A stretch of DNA of 64,000 nt from Minisyncoccota bacterium (GTDB taxonomy: Bacteria > Patescibacteriota > Minisyncoccia > Phycocordibacterales > UBA9973). A model generated the notes under the pieces. That model was not told the origin of the DNA and ran no database searches. It saw only the letters and a program-made list of their open reading frames with translations. This document shows, one piece after another, positions 6,780 to 60,693 of this stretch; within the stretch, counting starts at the first letter, position 1, and each line of letters opens with the position of its first letter. The stretch is from positions 6,126 to 70,125 of the forward strand of contig JBAYKD010000002.1 in assembly GCA_041664745.1 (NCBI GenBank), in the 5' to 3' direction. The position numbers and the translations under genes were made by a program.

Positions 6780-6791
6780 TGTGTTTTATAG

Positions 6792-6910
6792 AACACTCCA
6801 TAAAATTATTCTCGGACTCACCACACAATAAAATTCTACTGAATTTTTTGCTCGTACTCGGCTCGTCGGCCTCCGTAAGGGTTCGCTCGAGAACATTTTT
6901 GTTGCGTGTT
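6792..6910 (+). repeat. about 119-nt palindromic intergenic element, copy 1 (fills the csoR-copA spacer)
   Basis: Near-identical to the reverse complement of 58469..58587 and clearly related to 29959..30075. Imperfect ~25-nt terminal inverted repeats (AACACTCCATAAAATTATTCTCGGA / reverse complement AACACGCAACAAAAATGTTCTCGAG). The core is GC-rich (GCTCGTACTCGGCTCGTCGGCCTCCGTAAGGGTTCGCTCGAG). Confidence 0.85.
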
Positions 6911-6912
6911 AT

Positions 6913-7176
6913 TTACTTTCTCTTCAAACCATAAACTTTTAATATTTCCTCCGTCGCCTTTTTTGTTTGACCTTTTTGTATTTGGTGGACGAGGCAGGTG
7001 CCTAGGTGGCTTTCCATTAAAGCATCCTCTACCCCCGAGAGAGCTTGCTTCACGGCCGAAGTCTGAGTAATGATATCTATACAGTATGTTCCTTTTTCGA
7101 CCATTTCCTGTAAGCCTCGAACTTGTCCTTCAATAATCTTTAAACGACGTATTAGTTTTTGATTGTTATTATGCAT
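6913..7176 (-). CDS. csoR: CsoR-family copper-sensing transcriptional repressor
   Basis: 87 aa, DUF156-like helical protein with C-H-C ligand positions (GTYCIDII ... SHLGTC). It lies upstream of copA on the same strand. Confidence 0.85.
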   Translation of the reverse strand: MHNNNQKLIRRLKIIEGQVRGLQEMVEKGTYCIDIITQTSAVKQALSGVEDALMESHLGTCLVHQIQKGQTKKATEEILKVYGLKRK

Positions 7177-9136: not shown

Positions 9137-9161
9137 TATAGCAAGGACCGTCCTTGCTATA
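9137..9161. repeat. perfect 25-nt palindrome TATAGCAAGGAC-C-GTCCTTGCTATA (TAGCAAGGACC family)
   Basis: Perfect dyad symmetry. The same motif occurs at 60665..60693 and 62695..62732, with half-sites at 60652..60664 and 63212..63223. Confidence 0.8.
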
Positions 9162-9286
9162 GTATGGCGGGAACGTGAGTACACTTATCGATCATTACAT
9201 GACCAGTATCCCAATTCGTTTCGGTTAACACCGAAAAACGAATTGGGCTTCGATTTCCGCACGCTTCATCCGCAGGGATGAAGCTC

Positions 9287-9340
9287 ATCTCCACATAAGA
9301 AAAAACCTCATCGGAATGAGGTTTTTTCTTATGTGGAGAT
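9287..9340 (-). terminator. 25-bp perfect inverted repeat / bidirectional terminator overlapping the tmRNA 3' end
   Basis: ATCTCCACATAAGAAAAAACCTCAT-CGGA-ATGAGGTTTTTTCTTATGTGGAGAT. The inner part is a classic A-tract / hairpin / T-tract. The outer 7 nt are complementary to the tmRNA acceptor 3' strand. Confidence 0.7.
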
Positions 9341-9733
9341 GGCGGGAATCGAACCCGCGTGCAGGAGGGAATCTTATAGAATTCTACATGTTTAGTATGT
9401 TCATTTTGTTTTAACCATTTACTCTAGAGAGCATACAAGAAAAGTAAATAACGAGCTTTAAATTGTAGAACTTTACATCAAGCATTTGTAAAATCGTAAC
9501 CCGATAAATTATGCCCACTCTTTATATCGGATGTCAAAAGAGTAGACATCGTCCAGACCTAAATTTAGGCGAGGGCGAAAGCGGATTGCATACCGAATGC
9601 CGAAGCAAAAGGCGATACTATCGCTCTAGCGACTTTGTTTGCACTTAGTCTTTTCCAAGAAGTTTTAAAAGATTCCTGAGTACTTTACATGCATATATAA
9701 GATGATTCCTCTTGTCGAAGCCGATCATCCCCC
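9334..9733 (-). ncRNA. ssrA: tmRNA (transfer-messenger RNA)
   Basis: The minus-strand 5' end is GGGGGATGATCGGCTTCGAC. The 3' end is GCGGGTTCGATTCCCGCCATCTCCA (T-arm plus acceptor). An internal reading frame at 9565..9642 would encode ANKVARAIVSPFASAFGMQSAFALA*. The gene is directly adjacent to smpB. Confidence 0.9.
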
Positions 9734-10262: not shown

Positions 10263-12146
10263 ATGGATAAAAACAAAAAATCAACACAACCCAAAATACC
10301 CAACATTGTAAACCAGATAATGATTGCAATATTTATATTTATTAGTATTACCCTTATTTATACTCTTGTAGCGAAGAAGCCTGAAGATATCAAGAAGATG
10401 ACTATTTCCGAAGTAGCGAAAAGTGTCGTAGATGGATCAATAGAGAAAATTGTCGTTTCAGGTGGCGATATAAATATTACTTTCAAAGATAAGACAATTG
10501 GCTCTGCAAAAAAAGAGTTAGAGAGCTCTCTGTCTGAGACTTTATACAATTACGGAGTCACTCCGGTACAATTAGCAGGTACACCGATTGAGATTAAGAC
10601 AGAGTCAGGATTCTGGTATTCTGTTTTAAATATTTTACCATTCCTTCTTCCTGTATTTATAATTATATTTTTTATTTGGATGCTCACTCGCCAAGTGAAA
10701 GGTCAAGGAATGCAAGCTTTCACTTTTGGTCAGTCCAAAGCTCGCATTACAGACCCAGATGATAAAAACAATAAAGTAACTTTTAAAGATGTCGCCGGTG
10801 CAAAAGAAGCGAAAGAAGAATTAAAAGAGATAGTGGATTTTCTAAAGAATCCTAAAAAGTTTTTAGACATAGGCGCAAGGATTCCTAAGGGTGTCCTTCT
10901 TACAGGTGCACCTGGAACAGGGAAGACTTTACTTGCAAGAGCTGTCGCAGGGGAAGCAGAAGTACCGTTCTTCCATTTGTCTGGAAGTGAGTTCGTAGAA
11001 ATGTTTGTTGGAGTTGGAGCAAGCCGTGTACGCGACTTGTTCAAAATGGCAAAAAAAGCTGCTCCTTCAATAGTATTTATCGATGAGATAGATGCAGTAG
11101 GGCGCGTCCGTGGTACGGGAGTCGGTGGGGGAAATGATGAACGTGAGCAGACCTTGAACCAAATACTTGTAGAGATGGATGGTTTTGAACCAAATGAAAA
11201 GGTGATAGTCATGGCTGCAACAAACAGAGGCGATGTACTTGATCCAGCTCTCCTACGTCCAGGACGTTTTGACAGAAGAGTCGTCCTTGATTTACCAGAC
11301 CGCGGTGACCGTGAAGAAATTCTTAAAATACATTCAAACAAGAAACCATTTGCTGAAGATGTAAACTTGAAAGTTATAGCTGAACGTACTCCCGGATTCT
11401 CAGGAGCTGACCTTTCATCAATCATGAACGAAGGAGCAATCTTGGCAGCAAGAGAGGATAGGAAAAAAGTTGCGCAGTTTGACCTCGTACGTTCTATAGA
11501 GAAAGTTATGATGGGCCCAGAGAGAAAGAGTCACTTACTTTCCAAGAAAGAAAAAGAAATAACTGCTTATCATGAAGCTGGGCACGCACTTGTAGCATCG
11601 ATGCTTCCACACGCTGATCCAGTACACAAAGTCTCCATCGTTTCTCGTGGTAATACAGGAGGATATACCTTGAAGCTCCCACTTGAAGAGCGAAGAATGC
11701 AAAGCAAGAAAGAATTTTTAGACGATATCGCAATGTCTCTCGGTGGATACGTTGCAGAAGAAATGGTCTTCGGAGATATAACGACAGGACCATCCAATGA
11801 TCTTCAAGTTGCGACAAGTCTGGCCCGTGCAATGGTAACGAGATGGGGGATGAGCGATGAGATAGGCCCAATAGCACTTGAAAGTGATGGAGGACGAACG
11901 ATGTTCGGACGTGGAGTGAACGACAGTGAATACTCTGAACGCGTCAGTGCTCTTATAGATAGCGAAGTCTCAAAGATTATGAATAATGCTTTCGCTGTGG
12001 CTCGTACCGTCCTTACAGATAAAAGAAAAGTTCTTGATGCTATTGCTCACAAACTAATCGATGTAGAAACTCTAGAACAAGCTGAATACAACGAGATAAT
12101 AGTGGCGAATGGGATCGTGCCAAAGAAAAAAGAAGAAATAAAATAA
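10263..12146 (+). CDS. ftsH: ATP-dependent zinc metalloprotease FtsH
   Basis: Start at MDKNKK..., since the ORF-track N-terminal extension overlaps smpB antisense. Two TM helices, Walker A GAPGTGKT, Walker [12 protein letters not shown] region, and zinc site HEAGHA. Confidence 0.95.
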
Positions 12147-19818: not shown

Positions 19819-22185
19819 TTATTCAAAATGCAATTTGAGATTTTTTGATTTAATTATTTCTGAGATGACGGGAAAGGATTTTAGATCTGTGTCAACCTCA
19901 ATCATTTTGATAGCTTCTGTTCGGGCAGCTTCTACCATTTTTATATTCTTTATAGCTTCCATGCCGAGGTCGGTAATGCCCCATTGCTTCTCTCCTCCCA
20001 AGAGTCCTGCTCCACGGAGCGATAGATCGAGCTCAGCAAGCTCAAATCCGTTTGATGCTTTTGTAATAGCCTTCAGTCTCTCGATTGTTTTGTCTGATTT
20101 AGCATCAGCAAATAAGTAGCAGTAGGATTGAAAAGTTGAACGAATAACTCGTCCGCGAAGCTGGTGGAGCTGGGCGAGACCGAAACGTTCTGCTCCTTCT
20201 ATTATGATTACAGTTGCGTTGGGGACGTTCACTCCGACTTCTATAACAGAAGTTGAGACCAATATATCAATTTTTTTATCGGCAAAATCTTTCATAACCT
20301 TCTCTTTTTTCTCCTTCGTCATCTTGCTGTGCATTATCTCAATATTATAATTTGGAAAGATGTCTTTCTTTAGTCTTTTGGCTTCATCATTAACAGTTCG
20401 AAGCTCGGAGATATTACTTCCGTCAGCACGCAATAAATCTCTGGTGAGATTTTTGCTAGTGCTCGGCTCGACTTCCTTACAGGAACAGTACACCTTTTGG
20501 ACACTTTGATTACAAAGTTTCTCAAAAGGTCTTGCGGAAGCTTCAGGTATTCGCTTCCTCACCTGCGTGAGGCTTCCTGAAGCAATATCTCCGAGCTTCT
20601 CACTTTCCTCACCGATTTTTGGACAAATTACATAAAGCTGTCGTCCTTCTTCTAATTCTTTCTTAATTTTTTCATAAGCTTCTGCTCTTTTATTTTCTTT
20701 TACTATTTCTGTGATGACTTGCTTGCGGCCAAGTGGCATCTCATCAATGATACTCAAATCCAAGTCGCCATAAATAGTGAGCGCAAGTGTGCGGGGGATA
20801 GGTGTCGCTGTCATTGATAAATAATGTGGGGCATGGCCATGCTTCTTTACCAACTTCATTCTTTGGTTTGTTCCAAATCTGTGTTGTTCATCTATTATTA
20901 CAAGCCCTAGATCTTTAAACTCTACGGTTTTAGATATGAGAGCATGTGTGCCGATCACTATCGGTATCTCACCATTTTTAATCCATTTCAAAAGCTGATT
21001 CTTGGCAATTGGCGTCCATGTTTTTATTTGTGAGCCTTTCTCCCATGGTGCACTTTTACTAGGGAATTTACGGCAACCAGAGCCTGTCATAAGAGCAATA
21101 GATATGCCAGTATGTTCGAAATATTTGATAAAGTTCTCATAAAGCTGGGTAGCGAGAACTTCTGTCGGAGCCATATAAGCGACTTGCAGATTACCAAAAT
21201 CTCCATACCGAGAAGTTCCTGTAGTATTCTTTATTACTGCGTATGCGATAGTTGCTGCTACGAAAGTTTTTCCACTCCCGACGTCACCTTCAAGTAGGCG
21301 TGACATTGGTTTGTCTTTCACGAAATCGGTCAAAATAGTATCGATTGTATTTGTCTGTGCCTTCGTGGGAGTGAAAGGGAAGCGAGATATAAAGTCATTA
21401 ATATCTTTCTCAGGTATTTTTAATTTATATGAAAAGTTTTCTTGATACTTCTTCTTCTCTTGCTGGCGTGAAAGCTGAATGAAAAAAACTTCTTCGAAAG
21501 CAAATCTTTTGCGAGCTATTTCTGCGTGTTCTCTCTTTTGTGGCATGTGGACCCATATCAAAGCTGTATGTAATGCTGGTAAATTATATTTATTTAATAT
21601 TTCGCTCGGTATATAGTCCACAATATCTTTCACGCAATCCTGCTTTAGTATCTTCTGTATAGCGTGATAGAACCATTTGGAAGTGATACCTCGACTTTCT
21701 CCATATACAGGGAAGCCGAATTGAGTTTGCTTTTCTTTATTATTGAAAAGTGAATCGTCGATATCTATAGGGAGAATATCTTCTTTGTTTATTTCTGGAT
21801 TGGTCAACGTAAGTCCATAAGTTTTATTATTCGTGACTTTGCCCGTTACTCGCACAGTTGAATCCTCCTTAAGCATTTTTGCTAAGTAGGGTTGATGAAA
21901 CCAAATAATATTTATAGAGGAGGTTAAGTCTGTGAGTACCGCTTGCCCCATTGGTATTTTACTTTTGAACCCTTTTTTAGTTTTTAGTCCATTTATTTTC
22001 CCAAGTATTGTTACATTTTCTCCATCCTTTAATGTATTTATATTTCGGACTTCACTTATATCACTGTAGCGAGAGGGGAAGTGATAAAGTAAATCCTTTA
22101 AAGTTTTTAAACCAAGTGTCGCTAGTGCTTTCTTTTGATTTACATCAACACGAAAATGATTTTCGATTTTATCGCCTAGATTCAT
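19819..22185 (-). CDS. recG: ATP-dependent DNA helicase RecG (carries a 66-aa in-frame insertion)
   Basis: Wedge/OB N-terminal domain, Walker A GDVGSGKT, DEQH box, QxxGRxxR-type motif HQLRGRVIRS, and C-terminal TRG region. See the insertion feature at 20400..20599. Confidence 0.9.
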   Translation of the reverse strand: MNLGDKIENHFRVDVNQKKALATLGLKTLKDLLYHFPSRYSDISEVRNINTLKDGENVTILGKINGLKTKKGFKSKIPMGQAVLTDLTSSINIIWFHQPYLAKMLKEDSTVRVTGKVTNNKTYGLTLTNPEINKEDILPIDIDDSLFNNKEKQTQFGFPVYGESRGITSKWFYHAIQKILKQDCVKDIVDYIPSEILNKYNLPALHTALIWVHMPQKREHAEIARKRFAFEEVFFIQLSRQQEKKKYQENFSYKLKIPEKDINDFISRFPFTPTKAQTNTIDTILTDFVKDKPMSRLLEGDVGSGKTFVAATIAYAVIKNTTGTSRYGDFGNLQVAYMAPTEVLATQLYENFIKYFEHTGISIALMTGSGCRKFPSKSAPWEKGSQIKTWTPIAKNQLLKWIKNGEIPIVIGTHALISKTVEFKDLGLVIIDEQHRFGTNQRMKLVKKHGHAPHYLSMTATPIPRTLALTIYGDLDLSIIDEMPLGRKQVITEIVKENKRAEAYEKIKKELEEGRQLYVICPKIGEESEKLGDIASGSLTQVRKRIPEASARPFEKLCNQSVQKVYCSCKEVEPSTSKNLTRDLLRADGSNISELRTVNDEAKRLKKDIFPNYNIEIMHSKMTKEKKEKVMKDFADKKIDILVSTSVIEVGVNVPNATVIIIEGAERFGLAQLHQLRGRVIRSTFQSYCYLFADAKSDKTIERLKAITKASNGFELAELDLSLRGAGLLGGEKQWGITDLGMEAIKNIKMVEAARTEAIKMIEVDTDLKSFPVISEIIKSKNLKLHFE
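20400..20599. mobile_element. palindromic GC-rich element inserted in-frame in recG (198-bp core)
   Basis: Perfect 16-bp terminal inverted repeat GAAGCTCGGAGATATT / AATATCTCCGAGCTTC. 20401..20598 is 198 bp, or 66 codons. It has internal nested hairpins and shares the core ATTTTTGCTnGTnCTCGGCTCG with the intergenic element family. Confidence 0.75.
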
Positions 22186-28663: not shown

Positions 28664-29956
<1,293 letters not shown>

Positions 29957-29958
29957 AA

Positions 29959-30075
29959 AACACTCCATAAGAATATTCTCGGACTCACCACGCATATTTC
30001 CTTGCTAGGAAATTGCTCTGCTCGGCCCAGTCGGCCTGCGCAAGTGTTCCCTCGAGAACATTCTTATTACGTGTT
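29959..30075 (+). repeat. about 117-nt palindromic intergenic element, copy 2 (3 nt after the eno stop)
   Basis: The termini match copy 1 (AACACTCCATAAGAATATTCTCGGACTCACCAC ... CTCGAGAACATTCTTATTACGTGTT). The central core is diverged (GCTCTGCTCGGCCCAGTCGGCCTGCGCAAGTGTTCC). Confidence 0.8.
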
Positions 30076-30108
30076 TTTTTAAAAAATATTTTGTGATACA
30101 ATATATAT

Positions 30109-41750: not shown

Positions 41751-41764
41751 ATTAAAATTTAATC

Positions 41765-42223
41765 ATGAAAAAAAATAAAGGTTTTACGCTTATTGAACTT
41801 CTCGTCGTTATCGCAATTATTGGTATTTTGGCTTCAGTAGTTTTAGCGTCCTTAACGAGTGCTCGAATAAAGGGTAAAGTTGCTGCTATAGAGTCTACGA
41901 TGTCTTCAATGCGAGCTGCAGCCGAGATTGGAATGTCAAATGGTAAATATATTGCACATATTTGTACCGTTCCGAGTACGGGTGGGGGTATACAGACATT
42001 ATTGGCATCTATTCAGTTAGTTTCTTCTAAGGCTACAGACGTACGATGCGCTAGTGATGCTGGACATTTCAAATGGGGTGTTTCTGCTACTCTTCCTGCT
42101 ACTTCTTCTACTCCAGCTGGTACCGTCTTCTGTGTTGATAGTACGGGATATTCTGGTACAGTTACAGGTGCTACTAAGATAGTAGCAGGTGATGATACTA
42201 GTACCGCTACTACTTGTTTATAA
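41765..42223 (+). CDS. type IV major pilin (prepilin)
   Basis: Class III signal MKKNKG|FTLIELLVVIAIIGILASVVLASL, with a variable C-terminal half containing Cys pairs. Confidence 0.9.
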   Translation: MKKNKGFTLIELLVVIAIIGILASVVLASLTSARIKGKVAAIESTMSSMRAAAEIGMSNGKYIAHICTVPSTGGGIQTLLASIQLVSSKATDVRCASDAGHFKWGVSATLPATSSTPAGTVFCVDSTGYSGTVTGATKIVAGDDTSTATTCL

Positions 42224-42267: not shown

Positions 42268-42302
42268 AAGTTATTAAATTTCTACCTTTGGTAGAAAATA
42301 TT

Positions 42303-42812
42303 ATGAAAAAAAATAAAGGTTTTACACTTATTGAACTTCTAGTTGTTATTGCAATTATTGGTATATTAGCATCTGTTGTCTTGGCTTCACTTTCAAGTGC
42401 TCGAAATAAAGGAAAGGATGCCGCTGTTAAATCTCAACTCTCAAGTATGAGAGCTCAAGCAGAAATTTTCTATTCAACAGCTGAGACTTATGTTGGTATT
42501 TGTACAGGAGATATTGCTACAGTGCCAGGTGCATTTGGTGGTACAGGAGGATTACTCACTGCTATTGTAGCTTCTGAAGGTGTTTCAACTTCTGTAAATG
42601 CAGTAAACACAGTTGCAGGAAATGCTACTACTTCTCCATATTCTGTAACTTGTCACTCTATAGCTGATGCATGGGTAGCCGAGGCTCCTTTGGTCTCTGT
42701 AGCTGCAGTTGCTCCCGCTACTGTTAAAATGTACTGTGTAGATAGCACTGGTGCTTCTAAGGAAACAAGTACAGCTATAGCATCAGATGCAACAGCTTGT
42801 CCAACAAACTAA
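42303..42812 (+). CDS. type IV pilin paralog (prepilin)
   Basis: Start at ATG 42303. Its first ~30 aa are identical or near-identical to the upstream pilin (MKKNKGFTLIELLVVIAIIGILASVVLASL), and the C-terminal domain is diverged. Confidence 0.9.
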   Translation: MKKNKGFTLIELLVVIAIIGILASVVLASLSSARNKGKDAAVKSQLSSMRAQAEIFYSTAETYVGICTGDIATVPGAFGGTGGLLTAIVASEGVSTSVNAVNTVAGNATTSPYSVTCHSIADAWVAEAPLVSVAAVAPATVKMYCVDSTGASKETSTAIASDATACPTN

Positions 42813-44381: not shown

Positions 44382-45035
44382 ATGACATTCATAAAGAAAC
44401 AAGAAAATACAGGGTTTACCCCCACACCAACTTTCAAGAGTAGGGGAAAGTTGGTGTGGGGGTTTACACTTATAGAGCTAATGATCGCTACTTCATTATT
44501 TACTGTTATTATGCTTATGGGAGTAGGATCTCTAGTTGTGTCTTCAAATTCATCGAAGGCTTCCCAAAAGCTTAGAATCACAGTGGATAATGTAAATTTT
44601 GCTATGGAGAACATGACTCGTGAGCTTCGCATGGGAACTAATTATGAGTGTGCAACATCATTTGTTAATTTAGCTAGCCCAATTCCCACTGATTGTCCCT
44701 TGGGAACTACACCTGGGAATATAATTGCTTTTAATCCACAGCAAACCTTAGGTGCTCCACTTAGAGTTTCTTATCAATTAAAACCAAGAAATGACGCTAC
44801 AGGAACTAACAGCCTAGAGAGATGTGAGATCAATACAACTCCTTGTTCCGAGATTGTTTCACCGGATGTTGATATAAAGACGTTAAAATTTTTTGTAAAA
44901 GGTTCCCAAACTAATGATACTATTCAACCTAGTGTAGAAATTTTAATAAAAGGAGTTGTGACTATTAAGAATAAAAATATTTCTAAATCCTTTACTCTCC
45001 AAACAATGACTTCGCAACGTTCAGCAGAAAAATAA
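44382..45035 (+). CDS. minor pilin / pseudopilin
   Basis: Long leader followed by G|FTLIELMIATSLFTVI. Confidence 0.75.
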   Translation: MTFIKKQENTGFTPTPTFKSRGKLVWGFTLIELMIATSLFTVIMLMGVGSLVVSSNSSKASQKLRITVDNVNFAMENMTRELRMGTNYECATSFVNLASPIPTDCPLGTTPGNIIAFNPQQTLGAPLRVSYQLKPRNDATGTNSLERCEINTTPCSEIVSPDVDIKTLKFFVKGSQTNDTIQPSVEILIKGVVTIKNKNISKSFTLQTMTSQRSAEK

Positions 45036-46110: not shown

Positions 46111-48198
46111 ATGGAAGATAAAAAATTAAAAAACCGAATAGTTAAACTTCGGAAAGAGATTTCTCGTCTTCGCTCTGAATATCATGAGAAGAATAATCCG
46201 AAAGTTACCGATGATGTATATGAGTCCTTATCTCGCGAGCTTAAAGATCTTGAAAGTAAATATCCCGAATATCTCGATCCAAATAGCGCTATAAATAGAG
46301 TAGCGGGCAAACCTCTACCGAGTTTCCAAAAAGTGAAGCATGACATAAGAATGCTTTCTTTGAATGATGTTTTTTCTGAAGAAGAGATTACAGATTGGGA
46401 AACTCGTATCTCAAAAATTTTAGAGAATTCCAATTCTTTAAATTATTTTTGTGAAGTGAAGCTTGATGGTTTGTCAGCCTCGCTCCACTATAAAGATGGA
46501 GTTTTTGTGAGAGGGGCCACGAGAGGAGACGGATGGATAGGGGAAGATGTAACCGAAAATTTAAAAATGATTTCGTCTATACCACTTCGATTGGATGGCG
46601 ATATCAAGGGCGATGTTGAAGTTCGTGGTGAAGTTGTAATGACGAAAAAGGCGTGGGAGAAATTGAATAAAAAACAAGAAGAATCTGGCAAAACAATTTT
46701 TGCAAATACTCGTAATGCTGCTGCAGGGAGCCTCCGTCAGCTTGATCCGCAAATAGTAAAGGAGAGGAATCTTGATTTTTTTGCTTGGGATATAGCACAA
46801 TATCCTACAAGTATTTCTAACCACAGCGATAAGCATAAAATTTTGAAAGATATTGGTTTTCAAATTGCCCCATACGATAAAAAGGCCAAGAATTTAAAAG
46901 AAGTTTTTTCTTTTATAAAAGAGATTGGAAAAGTACGAGCAGGTTTTCCTTATGGTACTGATGGTATGGTTATCTCTATTGATAATTTAGAGATACAAGA
47001 AAGTTTAGGCTATGTGGGTAAGGCACCAAGATATATGACTGCGTATAAATACGAAGCGGAGAGAGCGACAACAGTAGTGACCGATATAACTGTGAATGTT
47101 GGAAGAACGGGCGTGATGACTCCACTAGCACACTTTAATTCGACTCTGGTTGCTGGTTCGACTATTTCAAAAGCAACATTACACAATATGGATCAGATAG
47201 AACGCCTTGATATAAGAGTGGGTGATACTGTCGTTATTCAAAAAGCTGGCGATGTTATTCCTGAGATTGTAGAAGTACTTATAAATATGCGTACTGGGAA
47301 AGAGAAGAAATTTAAAATGCCAGAATTTTGTCCGGTATGTAATTCTAAAATTGAACGTAAGACTGGAGTCGGAGAAAGTCCTATGAGCAACTGGTCTGGC
47401 ACCGGCTCCCGTCCCCCTCGTCCGAGGACCTTGCGAAGAGGAGCTTTCTCCGACTCCAGTCTGTCTTCTTCTGTGGCTTTTTACTGCACTAATAAAAACT
47501 GTCCTGCTAGAAGTAGGAGAGGCATGCAACATTTTGTAAATATATTTGAAATTTATGAGATAGGCCCAAAAATTCTTGATAGATTAAAAGATGAAGGACT
47601 TGTCACAGATGCGGCTGATTTATTTACACTTGAGAAGGTTGACCTTTCAGGGCTCGAAAGGTTTGGGGAAAAATCTGCCGACAACATTATTAAATCTATT
47701 GATATTCACAGAGTGGTTTTACTTTGGAGATTTATATATGCTCTTGGAATTATTCATGTAGGGGAGCAGACGGCTCGCGATCTTGCGAACCATTTTGGTT
47801 CTCTTACCGAGATATCAAAAGCCAGTGAAGAGAGTATAAATAGTATAGAAAATATTGGACCTGTAGTGAGTAAGAGTATATATGAATATTTTAGACAAAA
47901 AGAAAATATAGCTTTTATGGACAAGTTATTTAAAAATGGAGTTATTATTGATAATACATCTTTAAAGGGAACTTTTAGACTTAAAGATAAAATATTTGTT
48001 TTAACAGGAACTCTGGAAACCTTATCTAGAGATGATGCCAAAAAAATGATTATCAAAGAAGGTGGCAGAGTCTCTTCTTCTGTCTCAAATAAGACGGATT
48101 ATGTAGTGGTTGGAGCAGAACCTGGAAGTAAATATGAAGATGCTAAGAAAATTGGGGTAAAAACTCTCACAGAAGATGAATTTCTAAAAATATTGTAA
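46111..48198 (+). CDS. ligA: NAD-dependent DNA ligase LigA (carries a ~33-aa in-frame insertion in the Zn-finger)
   Basis: Adenylation site CEVKLDG, OB fold, Zn-finger CPVC...C..NC, HhH repeats, and C-terminal BRCT (FVLTGTL...). Confidence 0.95.
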   Translation: MEDKKLKNRIVKLRKEISRLRSEYHEKNNPKVTDDVYESLSRELKDLESKYPEYLDPNSAINRVAGKPLPSFQKVKHDIRMLSLNDVFSEEEITDWETRISKILENSNSLNYFCEVKLDGLSASLHYKDGVFVRGATRGDGWIGEDVTENLKMISSIPLRLDGDIKGDVEVRGEVVMTKKAWEKLNKKQEESGKTIFANTRNAAAGSLRQLDPQIVKERNLDFFAWDIAQYPTSISNHSDKHKILKDIGFQIAPYDKKAKNLKEVFSFIKEIGKVRAGFPYGTDGMVISIDNLEIQESLGYVGKAPRYMTAYKYEAERATTVVTDITVNVGRTGVMTPLAHFNSTLVAGSTISKATLHNMDQIERLDIRVGDTVVIQKAGDVIPEIVEVLINMRTGKEKKFKMPEFCPVCNSKIERKTGVGESPMSNWSGTGSRPPRPRTLRRGAFSDSSLSSSVAFYCTNKNCPARSRRGMQHFVNIFEIYEIGPKILDRLKDEGLVTDAADLFTLEKVDLSGLERFGEKSADNIIKSIDIHRVVLLWRFIYALGIIHVGEQTARDLANHFGSLTEISKASEESINSIENIGPVVSKSIYEYFRQKENIAFMDKLFKNGVIIDNTSLKGTFRLKDKIFVLTGTLETLSRDDAKKMIIKEGGRVSSSVSNKTDYVVVGAEPGSKYEDAKKIGVKTLTEDEFLKIL
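47360..47462. mobile_element. palindromic GC-rich element inserted in-frame in ligA
   Basis: Perfect 19-bp inverted repeat AGACTGGAGTCGGAGAAAG / CTTTCTCCGACTCCAGTCT flanking a GC-rich core (GGCACCGGCTCCCGTCCCCCTCGTCCGAGGACCTTGCGAAGAGG). 47362..47460 is 99 bp, or 33 codons. Confidence 0.75.
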
Positions 48199-58458: not shown

Positions 58459-58468
58459 AAAATACAAA

Positions 58469-58587
58469 AACACGTAATAAAAATGTTCTCGAGCGAACCC
58501 TTACGGAGGCCGACGGGCCGAGTACGAGCAAAAAATTCAACAGAATTTTATTGTGTGGTGAGTCCGAGAATGTTTTTATGGAGTGTT
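58469..58587 (-). repeat. about 119-nt palindromic intergenic element, copy 3 (inverted orientation)
   Basis: Its reverse complement differs from copy 1 (6792..6910) at only a handful of positions. Confidence 0.85.
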
Positions 58588-58603
58588 TTTTAAATTGTGA
58601 TAC

Positions 58604-59329: not shown

Positions 59330-59471
59330 AGGTCTTATTCTACCGCAAAAATTCCTTTAATTCAAACTGTCTTTTTTACCATTTTGTGGTAATATGTTGG
59401 TGTTGATGGGTCTTGAGATTCTAAAAGGGAAGTTAGAAGATTTTTTAAAAAATAATATTTGTACCCAAAGC

Positions 59472-59542
59472 TGCGGGATCGTCTAATGGTAGGACCGCAG
59501 TTTCTGGAACTGTGTATTTAGGTTCGAATCCTAGTCCCGCAG
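59472..59542 (+). tRNA. tRNA-Gln (CUG)
   Basis: U1:A72 acceptor TGCGGGA/TCCCGCA, D-loop TCTAATGGTAGGA, anticodon arm GCAGT-TTCTGGA-ACTGT, T-loop TTCGAAT, discriminator G. Confidence 0.88.
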
Positions 59543-59559
59543 CTTTGGGTGTAAATAAA

Positions 59560-60664: not shown

Positions 60665-60693
60665 TATATAGCAAGGACCGTCCTTGCTATATA
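60665..60693. repeat. perfect 29-nt palindrome TATATAGCAAGGAC-C-GTCCTTGCTATATA (TAGCAAGGACC family)
   Basis: Perfect dyad, preceded by an extra half-site TATAGCAAGAACC at 60652..60664. It lies between convergent genes. Confidence 0.8.

Follow-up and report, generated by a model that had tools for sequence, protein, structure and literature searches.

A GC-rich hairpin repeat in the LigA zinc finger of a Patescibacteria genome, probably one copy of a mobile family

The gene for NAD-dependent DNA ligase (ligA) in a Patescibacteria MAG carries an in-frame, GC-rich palindrome that splits the four-cysteine zinc finger of its product. This segment is probably one copy of a hairpin repeat family, termed family A here, that is small, non-coding and non-autonomous, resembles Rickettsia palindromic elements (RPEs) and REPINs, and is tolerated in a permissive loop of the enzyme, which would have become a hot spot for nested copies. 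The 103-nt hairpin was inserted as one unit; its basal stem is copy-specific and fast-evolving, yet complementary; and copies sit in intergenic spacers as well as in frame in flexible loops and linkers of housekeeping proteins. Hairpin repeats of this kind have apparently not been described before in these ultra-small bacteria. The comparison covered 64 kb of the source genome, which is the whole stretch of DNA analysed and is called the window below, together with stretches of up to ~22 kb of other genomes.

The palindrome and its host protein

The ligA gene (46111..48198, + strand) encodes 695 amino acids, and the model of its product matches 2owo, 5tt5 and 1dgs. The element splits the zinc-finger module (47329..47502, + strand; C407-x2-C410 ... 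C459-x4-C464): C407 and C410 are encoded at 47329-47340 and C459 and C464 at 47485-47502, and the spacer between the two pairs is 48 aa long, whereas the shortest related LigAs have 12-15 aa there. Pfam family PF03119 matched in two stretches with the insert in place and in one full-length stretch after its in-silico deletion. The complete hairpin (47360..47462, + strand) occupies codons 417-451, has a GC content of 60% compared with 34.8% for the 64-kb window, and aligns with 43 other copies. Its left basal arm (47360..47378, + strand) reads AGACTGGAGTCGGAGAAAG and returns as the perfect reverse complement in the right basal arm (47444..47462, + strand). For this perfect 19-nt inverted repeat 0.03 matches were expected by chance, and none of 100 shuffles gave two; the distal part of the stem is copy-specific and fast-evolving. 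The conserved core consists of a 5' half (47375..47400, + strand; AAAGTCCT-ATGA-GCAACTGGTCTGGC) and a 3' half (47421..47447, + strand; TCCGAGGACCTTGC-GAAG-AGGAGCTTT), the latter being the basis of our search pattern, and the two flank a variable apical segment that defines subfamilies (47401..47420, + strand; ACCGGCTCCCGTCCCCCTCG). As a single strand, the element folds at -57.2 kcal/mol (z = -5.4). It is open in four of the six frames, and an antisense ORF of 117 aa without a Pfam match (47179..47532, - strand) is a by-product of this stop-free, GC-rich palindrome and no gene.

These data bear out the initial annotation, which had described a palindromic, frame-preserving DNA element splitting the finger, given the coordinates of both arms exactly, and pointed to the mirrored peptide in the antisense ORF; the element is defined at the DNA level and not at the protein level. 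The extent of 33 codons proposed there gives way to the 35 codons of the whole hairpin, while the preservation of the frame stands. In-silico deletion of the 35 codons leaves a 13-aa spacer, which is the canonical length; relative to alleles with 18-aa spacers, the insert amounts to 30 codons. The annotation had also raised the prospect of an assembly chimera. Two independent JGI contigs encoding a 92%-identical LigA have this element at the very same site, and so do dozens of further assemblies; samples and projects differ, and the reading frame is intact throughout. To judge from these sequences, the ligA segment is not an assembly artefact, and we give a chimera or a sequencing error next to no credence.

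In the protein, modelling shows the insert as a disordered loop that sits on the tip of the zinc-finger hairpin and usually carries a positive charge. Residues 418-456 were predicted with pLDDT below 50, between strands at 413-416 and 457-459, in a LigA model that is itself of moderate quality (mean pLDDT 69.7, with part of the OB domain also of low confidence). An effect on the metal-binding module, which had been thought plausible, is not indicated by a predicted disordered loop between short strands, a model that addresses the question weakly. The frame was intact in all LigA alleles examined, and each recovered insert-bearing allele lacked a stop. Inserts in intact LigA or PolA frames were always divisible by three in length and free of stops, in searches that would miss frame-disrupted alleles. 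Inteins, introns and bypassed segments are removed and need not keep frame or be free of stops; the recovered LigA and PolA copies did not show this behaviour, and no intein-like motifs were noted in them.

Turnover of the finger site and dispersal of copies

The initial annotation took the ligA insert for an independent case, a view replaced here by one of clade-wide occupancy, in which the insert is neither isolated nor recent on this genome. Spacers in the 120 closest LigA homologs ranged from 12 to 74 aa: 85 were filled (28-74 aa), 32 had 17-27 aa, and only 3 had 12-15 aa. We read the 17-27-aa forms (32/120) as probable scars of such repeats. Alleles lacking the full element, which the annotation had suggested looking for, thus exist. 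Among 81 genome sequences (80 loci and the window), 46 had spacers of at least 36 aa, with a GC content of 0.39-0.60 as against 0.30-0.46 for their loci and minimum free energies mostly between -40 and -77 kcal/mol. The window copy is orthologous to that of the 92%-identical relative. Conservation of the insert as a protein feature across unrelated LigA lineages, which the annotation had said would count against it, was not seen: what is conserved is the DNA, in both orientations and three frames, giving unrelated peptides. The antisense peptide of the window is the sense peptide of other LigAs, and still others use the third frame. Among LigA copies the core can be aligned in both orientations, with 30 in the A+ and 35 in the A- orientation; the corresponding counts in PolA are 9 and 22.

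The LigA finger site turns over quickly. Mapped on the LigA tree, its state required 60 Fitch changes over 120 tips (70 after shuffling), and in only 35 of the 120 LigAs did the nearest neighbour have the same state; site state and tree thus appear almost uncorrelated. The LigA that is closest outside the spacer (96% identical) has a family-F remnant in place of family A. Among the alleles recovered, some have the core inverted, some have another family in place of A, some hold copies in tandem or nested, and some have lost the element by a deletion that spared parts of the arms. L076 retains AAAGTCCT of the core. In the 18-aa allele L004, which reads ACGGGAGTCGGAGAAAGT and then TCTGTAGCT, the left-arm sequence occurs only once and is identical to the window arm at 15 of 15 positions although synonymous sites are saturated, so that this arm looks like a recent scar. 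For family A, no strictly empty and filled pair was obtained from near-identical genomes; such a pair was recovered only for the unrelated palindrome of a pilin-like gene described below.

Metagenome sequences were searched with a 25-nt pattern from the 3' core half. This yielded 48 sites, namely 29 in the LigA finger, 3 in PolA, ~13 intergenic and 3-4 chance matches. Identical apical subfamilies occur at non-homologous sites; for example, the ligA copies L003 and L008 have the same apical variant as the non-ligA copies L083 and L099 (the last with three differences). Element-derived peptides were found in the interdomain linker of 61 of 120 PolA homologs, where the basal-arm peptides are the same as those of ligA copies; both peptides and DNA of the arms match (xG[IV]GES ... 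TFSDS). Of the 17 positions compared, the L081 arm agrees with that of the window at 13, and L126 retains GGCTGGAATCGGAGAAAG. The inner 11 nt of the arms are also common to L088 and L094. The rnhA-comEC spacer carries an A or F-like element in five of the seven contigs scored; of the other two, one has a weakly F-like hairpin and one is cut before rnhA. Here the orientation is constant, and the element takes up the spacer except for ~10 nt next to the stop and next to the start. Further copies lie in unrelated spacers (ABC/FtsX, folD/PAP2 and after enolase), and other occupied places include PheT, RecG and a second LigA site, whose left arm aligns with residues of insert-free alleles. PheT orthologs are too variable at the site for filled and empty alleles to define its junctions.

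Families F, H and others replace A at the same sites, as in the LigA fingers of L006 and L037, which are filled by a family-F core. Sequence comparison placed three family-F hairpins in the window: an intergenic copy at 6785..6913 (+ strand), another, also intergenic, at 29954..30081 (+ strand) immediately behind the stop codon of a 428-aa ORF that we take from its sequence to be enolase, and a third at 58463..58594 (- strand) in the spacer that follows the CTP synthase gene and separates convergent genes. Two other genes of the window host palindromic in-frame inserts, in line with the initial annotation, which had called the ligA insert the second such case. One is a partly F-like insert of ~70 aa between the two helicase domains of RecG (20395..20604, - strand). 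The other is a 40-bp in-frame palindrome in a pilin-like gene (44412-44459), unrelated to the above and accompanied by an 8-bp direct duplication. No consistent direct repeats of the kind that a target-site duplication would leave flank the copies of family A or F. Origin from a known RNA family or a tRNA was rejected, as there was no tRNA match and Rfam 15 returned nothing at the gathering threshold (best E-values 0.3-10, with scores far below the cut-offs). Carriage by phages was likewise discarded, with 0 matches in viral contigs.

Conservation, covariation and competing explanations

The element is built from two inverted half-units of ~26 nt on either side of a variable apex. Their asymmetries are fixed: a one-base bulge and an internal loop of 4x4 nt (ATGA/GAAG). 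In an alignment of the core halves, pairwise identity between genomes was 82% for the core, whereas the whole CDS stood at 68%, the outer arms at 40% and 4-fold degenerate sites at 36%; a separate comparison of copies gave 81-91% for cores and 34-39% for outer arms. Synonymous sites of ligA are thus saturated between genomes, and core identity stays flat across host divergence. The internal loop and the bulge are invariant while the helices covary strongly: 94.6% of cells were paired as against 75.8% in shuffles (none of 500 reached 94.6%), 285 cells had changed on both sides as against 78 in shuffles, and slid controls were at most 56% paired. Compensatory changes affected 20 of 31 pairs, with the inner-helix pair 39-106 occurring as CG in 25 copies, AU in 10 and UA in 6, and G-U intermediates are rare. 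Between the window and L129, whose cores are 100% identical, two substitutions in the left arm are exactly compensated in the right. The + strand of the element folds better than the - strand in 36 of 45 copies. With respect to the gene, the sense strand of ligA was the more stable in 25 of 46 cases (p = 0.36); since folding energy did not distinguish sense from antisense, we rejected selection on ligA mRNA structure.

A core that is more conserved than its host gene, at orthologous positions and across deep divergence, is also expected of a functional structured nucleic acid. The hairpin could accordingly be a cis-acting element bound by a protein as RNA, single-stranded DNA or cruciform DNA and selected at fixed places in genes for lagging-strand maturation and for DNA uptake or repair, where it could coordinate the expression or stability of ligA, polA, rnhA-comEC and recG. 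The level of core identity where synonymous sites are saturated, the covarying helices with their invariant loop and bulge, the excess of stable + strands, and the recurrence in ligA, polA and the rnhA-comEC spacer, each time at an orthologous position and in the spacer with constant orientation and filled to ~10 nt of stop and start, all speak for such a role. However, both orientations are about equally used in ligA and polA, unrelated families substitute for A at the same sites, and close relatives do not agree in having the element, in its family or in its orientation. The 35 of 120 LigAs without a recognisable element, mostly the short alleles read as scars, are evidently functional; the rarity of G-U pairs is unlike selected RNA helices; copies also occupy the unrelated spacers named above; and the enrichment near replication genes was seen in a pattern scan, which is biased towards conserved sites, and not across whole genomes. 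We therefore hold a cis-acting function to be unlikely. A narrower version, in which the family-A hairpin is a selected, protein-recognised signal marking the lagging-strand maturation genes ligA, polA and rnhA-comEC at fixed positions in Nomurabacteria/Paceibacteria, seems slightly less likely still. If true, it would mean that a structured regulatory or DNA-architectural element is kept in frame in essential enzymes at the cost of a disordered loop.

Two other accounts turn on the protein and on its native codons. An adaptive extension of the zinc finger, such as an Arg-rich DNA-contacting loop with incidental palindromy, draws on the place of the finger in the part of LigA that clamps DNA, as known from structure 2OWO of the E. 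coli enzyme with DNA, which our model matches, and on insert peptides that are net positive in 80 of the 85 filled LigAs, with a mean of +3. Yet GC-rich codons (for Arg, Gly, Pro and Ser) account for this charge, and three frames and two orientations place unrelated peptides at the same site. The same DNA in non-coding spacers, the low pLDDT across the insert and close relatives without it also make an adaptive loop very unlikely. Local fold-back synthesis, by which a short mobile core was inserted and the right arm arose as an inverted duplication of native upstream LigA codons (K-x-G-x-x-E-S), would explain why 18-aa alleles such as L004 have a single left arm, why outer arms diverge so much more than cores between copies, and why the left arm of the second LigA site aligns with insert-free alleles. 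Against it, PolA copies have the same arm peptides and DNA, as L081 and L126 illustrate, L088 and L094 agree in their inner arms, the L004 arm has the look of a recent scar, L076 keeps part of the core, and excision of the entire hairpin restores the canonical spacer length. The arm peptides and DNA shared with PolA and the element-derived bases in 'empty' alleles led us to reject such a duplication of the native flank, and to fold-back synthesis we attach even less weight than to the adaptive loop.

The mobile hairpin repeat is the explanation that we prefer. Family-A repeats would populate the AT-rich, streamlined genomes of Nomurabacteria/Paceibacteria, and the finger would act as a hot spot if leftover hairpin remnants attract or template further copies. 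The complementarity of the arms may be kept at the DNA level by arm-to-arm templated correction, as in quasipalindrome template switching, and not by selection on mRNA structure. The core would be conserved because some machinery must recognise it, candidates being a RAYT or an IS200/IS605-type transposase that binds single-stranded hairpins. One observation counts against pure selfishness and is not predicted by it: ligA, polA and rnhA-comEC stand for three Okazaki-fragment maturation enzymes, and the family recurs at all of them.

Likeness to known repeats and wider meaning

The closest likeness in the way of working is to the Rickettsia palindromic elements, or RPEs (Ogata et al. 2000). A later summary (PMC10969869) presents these as small, palindromic, non-autonomous repeats of a reduced, AT-rich genome that lie in non-coding DNA and also in frame in unrelated housekeeping genes, where they are translated and thought to sit where the fold tolerates them. 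The present palindromic repeats likewise lie in frame in housekeeping genes, namely LigA (two sites), PolA, PheT and RecG, with intact frames and, in LigA, an insert modelled as disordered. The likeness ends there, as the host is a Patescibacteria MAG and not a Rickettsia, and the sequences differ. Unlike RPEs, the Patescibacteria elements are strongly GC-rich relative to the genome, and the LigA finger tip is occupied in most of the clade, by several families, in both orientations, with nesting and rapid turnover. RPEs are described as encoding a conserved peptide (PMC10969869), whereas family A has a conserved core, a copy-specific, covarying basal stem and translation in three frames.

REPINs, or REP-BIME elements, are mobilised by RAYT transposases and form hairpins of two inverted, imperfect half-units around a spacer; they are multi-copy, long-persisting, conserved in sequence and extragenic, and occupy short intra-operon spacers (PMC3116915, PMC3337134). 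The cognate RAYT, a Y1/HUH transposase, is a single-copy gene that REPs usually flank. Family A is multi-copy as well, persists over long times with its sequence conserved, and fills short spacers within operons; its two inverted half-units align as one long imperfect hairpin with conserved asymmetries. However, many of its copies lie inside coding sequences (29 of the 48 pattern sites in ligA and 3 in polA), and no GTAG-type 5' motif of REPINs was seen in family-A copies. MITEs such as Correia/NEMIS, ERIC and BOX are small, non-coding and dispersed, have terminal inverted repeats and occasionally form in-frame ORF fusions (PMC10969869). Family A is likewise small and dispersed in many copies, with terminal inverted repeats and no coding capacity, but neither A nor F shows an evident target-site duplication, the 8-bp duplication being confined to the pilin-like palindrome. 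We know of no parent insertion sequence for families A and F. In quasipalindrome template-switch mutation, a change in one imperfect arm is copied to the other (PMC7202029). It is a type of mutation and no family of elements, and it would yield the compensated changes between the window and L129. The GC clusters or hairpin elements of fungal mitochondria are mobile, GC-rich palindromes in very AT-rich genomes, some of them in coding regions and some bypassed during translation. Those are elements of an organelle with unrelated sequences, whereas the bacterial copies recovered keep the frame without a stop.

Full-text literature searches on Patescibacteria (Candidate Phyla Radiation) and Parcubacteria turned up no account of elements that are palindromic or of the miniature inverted-repeat type, nor did they show the LigA zinc finger or the PolA linker named as sites of such insertion. 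Pfam domain matches are broken up by hairpin inserts and antisense ORFs are inflated by them, so that annotation pipelines for such genomes should mask these inserts. If our reading is correct, in-frame hairpin repeats are not peculiar to Rickettsia but recur in an independent lineage with reduced genomes, and they would account for part of the unusual protein insertions in these bacteria. The finger site would then be a natural experiment on the tolerance of a catalytic zinc finger, with 0 to ~60 extra residues at one loop. The very strong covariation of the hairpin would, in addition, offer a system in which the upkeep of palindromes at the DNA level can be separated from selection at the RNA level.

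A hairpin within the zinc finger of LigA

The NAD-dependent DNA ligase LigA (695 amino acids; 46111-48198, + strand) carries a 103-nt hairpin in frame within its zinc finger, at 47360-47462. This is one copy of a dispersed repeat that we term family A. As the initial annotation described, its ends form an exact inverted repeat, with AGACTGGAGTCGGAGAAAG at 47360-47378 and the perfect reverse complement at 47444-47462. For this 19-nt repeat, 0.03 matches are expected by chance, and no shuffle yielded two. The annotated GC-richness also held, at 60% G+C for the 103-nt unit versus 34.8% for the window. Folded as a single strand, the unit reaches -57.2 kcal/mol (z = -5.4). In a sliding fold scan it ranks among the most stable 120-nt folds of the window, equalled or bettered only by a stretch adjoining the tmRNA and by the tRNA-Gln locus. 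The element does split the finger, lying between C407/C410 and C459/C464 with the reading frame kept, and the Cys pairs are 48 residues apart, versus 12-15 in the shortest relatives. An antisense ORF with a mirrored peptide is likewise present (47179-47532) and had no family match in a Pfam search. The element itself is free of stops in four of its six reading frames.

The site varies greatly among relatives. Across the 120 closest LigA homologs (65-100% identity, all from Nomurabacteria/Paceibacteria metagenome-assembled genomes), the spacer spans 12 to 74 residues. It measures at least 28 residues in 85 homologs, 17-27 in 32 and 12-15 in three, so alleles without the full-length insert, which the initial annotation suggested looking for, exist. 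We also compared 80 species-representative loci (LigA 55-91% identical) together with the window. Spacers of at least 36 residues occur in 46 of these 81 sequences, with a GC fraction of 0.39-0.60 versus 0.30-0.46 for the host loci and minimum free energies mostly between -40 and -77 kcal/mol; short spacers do not fold.

The insert behaves as a DNA-level entity, as first proposed: one core appears in both orientations and several frames, encoding dissimilar peptides. Some LigAs carry the sense peptide of the window (SPMSNWSGTGSRPPRPRTLRRGA), others its antisense peptide (SSSSQGPRTRGTGAGARPVAHRT) and a third group a further reverse-strand frame (ALSRKVLGRGRTRGQT). The core could be aligned as DNA in six forward and 13 reverse copies of the genome set, and 30 forward and 35 reverse copies were recognized among the 120 proteins. 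The remaining finger inserts belong to the unrelated hairpin families F and H and several more, and some sites hold two elements, tandem or nested. A second LigA site in the adenylation-domain region, between YD(L/I) and HS(D/E)KH, is filled in frame by hairpin elements in four genomes (L065, at 10687-10765 of that locus; also L066, L079 and L122).

An AlphaFold2 model of the window LigA (61 homologs, mean pLDDT 69.7) has matches among solved structures of LigA, including 2owo, 5tt5 and 1dgs. Residues 418-456 fall below a pLDDT of 50 and are flanked by two short strands (413-416 and 457-459), so that in the predicted picture the insert is a loop extruded at the tip of the finger hairpin. With the insert present, the Pfam zinc-finger model PF03119 gives a match broken into two pieces (31.5 bits); in-silico deletion of 30 or 35 residues turns this into one full-length match (35.8 bits). 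Of the 85 filled LigAs, 80 have an insert peptide with a net positive charge. This charge may aid tolerance beside DNA, and it is also a consequence of GC-rich codons.

Anatomy of family A and the inserted unit

Forty-four non-redundant copies define the architecture of family A. A basal stem of ∼14-19 bp, whose distal sequence varies from copy to copy, leads into a conserved 5′ half, AAAGTCCT-ATGA-GCAAyGGTCTGGC. The apical segment, 15-45 nt long, is variable and defines the subfamilies; it is followed by the conserved 3′ half, TCCGAGGACCTTGC-GAAG-AGGAGCTTT. The halves are one unit inverted, with perfect symmetry broken by a fixed 4x4 internal loop and a one-base bulge. In the alignment, 94.6% of cells are paired versus 75.8% in shuffles (none of 500 as high), and 285 cells have changed on both sides versus 78. 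The covariation score is 0.527, versus 0.149 in shuffles and at most 0.157 with partners slid. Compensatory changes affect 20 of 31 pairs, including the core-internal pair 39-106 (CG 25, AU 10, UA 6), and G-U intermediates are rare. A 92%-identical LigA on two independent contigs has a core 100% identical to that of the window. Its left arm differs by two substitutions (GACTGG to GGCAGG), and the right arm carries their exact counterparts (CCAGTC to CCTGCC). An imperfect stem extension common to both copies indicates that the two insertions are orthologous.

We first favoured a model in which a short mobile core inserts and the right arm is copied, inverted, from native upstream codons. Two observations had pointed that way: 18-residue alleles have a single left-arm sequence, and identity between the outer arms of different copies is only 34-39%. 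Later data ruled this model out. Copies in PolA share the arm peptides (xG[IV]GES ... TFSDS) and matching arm DNA, and the close copies in loci L088 and L094 have the inner part of the arm in common. The arm of the 18-residue allele in locus L004 is identical to the window arm at 15 of 15 positions, even though synonymous sites are saturated. One ‘empty’ allele retains AAAGTCCT of the core, and once the entire hairpin (35 codons) is taken out, the spacer has 13 residues, the canonical length. The inserted unit is therefore the whole hairpin. Scars are the best explanation of the 17-27-residue alleles, in agreement with the 12-14-residue spacers of more distant LigAs.

The core is strikingly conserved. 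Over the 171 pairs formed by 19 genomes with family A in ligA, mean pairwise identity is 82% for the 55 core columns, 68% for the whole ligA coding sequence, 40% for the outer arms and 36% (saturated) for 4-fold degenerate ligA sites. Core identity is flat with host divergence (0.83, 0.82 and 0.84 in three LigA identity bins), which implies that the core is either constrained or constantly renewed from a common pool.

Dispersal, turnover and other palindromes

A 25-nt degenerate core pattern had zero matches among viral contigs and 48 in metagenome contigs: 29 in the LigA finger (both orientations), three in the PolA interdomain linker and ∼13 intergenic. Three to four of the 48 are chance hits on unrelated DNA of high GC content. 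The apical variant of the window recurs in an ABC/FtsX spacer (locus L083) and, with three differences, in an rnhA-comEC spacer (L099). Such sharing of subfamilies between non-homologous sites argues for movement or copying between them.

Element-derived peptides occupy the PolA linker, between EFKSLQNRFL and KAKIAFWLLNSERTDP, in 61 of 120 homologs (A forward in nine, A reverse in 22-23, plus at least three further families). The spacer between rnhA (RNase H) and comEC was scored on seven contigs (among them L085, L092, L098, L099, L106 and L120), one of which ends before rnhA. Five hold an A or F-like element and one a weakly F-like hairpin; the A copies here all have a single orientation. 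On one contig, A lies upstream of rnhA, an F-like hairpin separates the two genes and F follows comEC. Counting ligA and polA as well, family A thus recurs at the three Okazaki-fragment maturation genes. A copy in PheT matches in family the LigA insert of the same genome.

Family F has three intergenic copies in the window (6785-6913, 29954-30081 and 58463-58594), each ∼128 nt with conserved ends. The second lies directly 3′ of the stop of a 428-aa ORF, which we take from its sequence to be enolase. The inner 72 nt of F show 90% identity to the LigA-finger insert of another genome. RecG (ORF 19819-22185) carries an in-frame palindromic insert of ∼70 residues between its DEAD and Helicase_C domains (20395-20604, - strand). 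Its flanking 33-nt arms are 82% complementary, the folding energy of the surrounding 240-nt stretch is -95 kcal/mol, and over 48 nt the identity to the F copy at 6818-6865 is 79%. This is probably the other essential-gene case that the initial annotation counted in the window.

Turnover at the LigA site is rapid. On a neighbour-joining tree computed for the 120 LigAs after masking of the spacer, site states (empty or scar, A forward, A reverse in two frames, F, H and other) require 60 changes, versus 70 when shuffled (minimum 63), and only 35 of 120 nearest neighbours share a state. The LigA that is closest to that of the window outside the spacer (96% identical) has a 25-residue family F remnant, not A. 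Immediately ahead of the site, its codons show unusual divergence and agree with the allele of a LigA 77% identical to that of the window, so allelic exchange by recombination probably adds to inversion, replacement and deletion.

Several other repeats were seen in the window. A pilin-like ORF (44382-45035, +) has a 48-nt in-frame insertion (44412-44459) just ahead of its GFTLIELM motif, composed of a 40-nt palindrome (CCCCACACCAACTTTC...GAAAGTTGGTGTGG) and an 8-bp direct duplication, GGGTTTAC. Close relative L011 lacks it, its first 110 residues being 100% identical bar the gap and an adjoining residue; L129 and L130 have it, and a related palindrome lies in L037 and in pilin genes of L028. 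Next to each other lie ORFs 41765-42223 and 42288-42812, whose start regions have a 113-nt stretch in common (41762-41873, 42300-42412; 83% identity) and which are probably paralogous pilin-like genes. The tRNA-Gln (59472-59543) sits within a 23-nt inverted repeat, 91% complementary (59456-59557), that lengthens the acceptor stem by >10 bp into both flanks; this could reflect a stem used in processing, or a palindrome that has grown around a hairpin. A perfect 26-nt inverted repeat with a 4-nt loop (9286-9311/9316-9341) abuts the 3′ end of the tmRNA (9331-9732, - strand) and is probably a bidirectional terminator; the 120-nt stretch 9241-9360 is the most stable fold of the window (-80.7 kcal/mol). 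A 25-nt exact direct repeat (9137-9161 and 60667-60691) contains the palindrome TATAGCAAGGAC/GTCCTTGCTATA.

Nature of the family A hairpins

The main alternative is that the hairpin is under selection for a cis-acting function. Such a function would fit the very high conservation of the core and the fixed asymmetries. It would also fit the finding that the element recurs at ligA, polA and rnhA-comEC, whose products include the three Okazaki-fragment maturation enzymes, and that one strand folds better than the other in 36 of 45 copies. However, the element occurs in two orientations, unrelated families substitute for it, its presence is polymorphic between close relatives, and copies also lie within unrelated spacers. 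We consider such a function unlikely.

No Rfam family matched the element, and the literature that we searched gave no account of such elements in Candidate Phyla Radiation bacteria. On the best-supported interpretation, family A comprises non-autonomous hairpin repeats that act in the manner of REPINs or Rickettsia palindromic elements (PMC10969869, PMC3116915). Hairpin remnants could turn the LigA site into a hot spot for nesting, and recognition by some machinery may conserve the core. Arm complementarity may be upheld by DNA-level templated correction (PMC7202029), which fits two observations: G-U pairs are rare, and neither orientation is preferred relative to transcription. On the same best-supported interpretation, the copy in the window is translated, and LigA tolerates it in a permissive loop.
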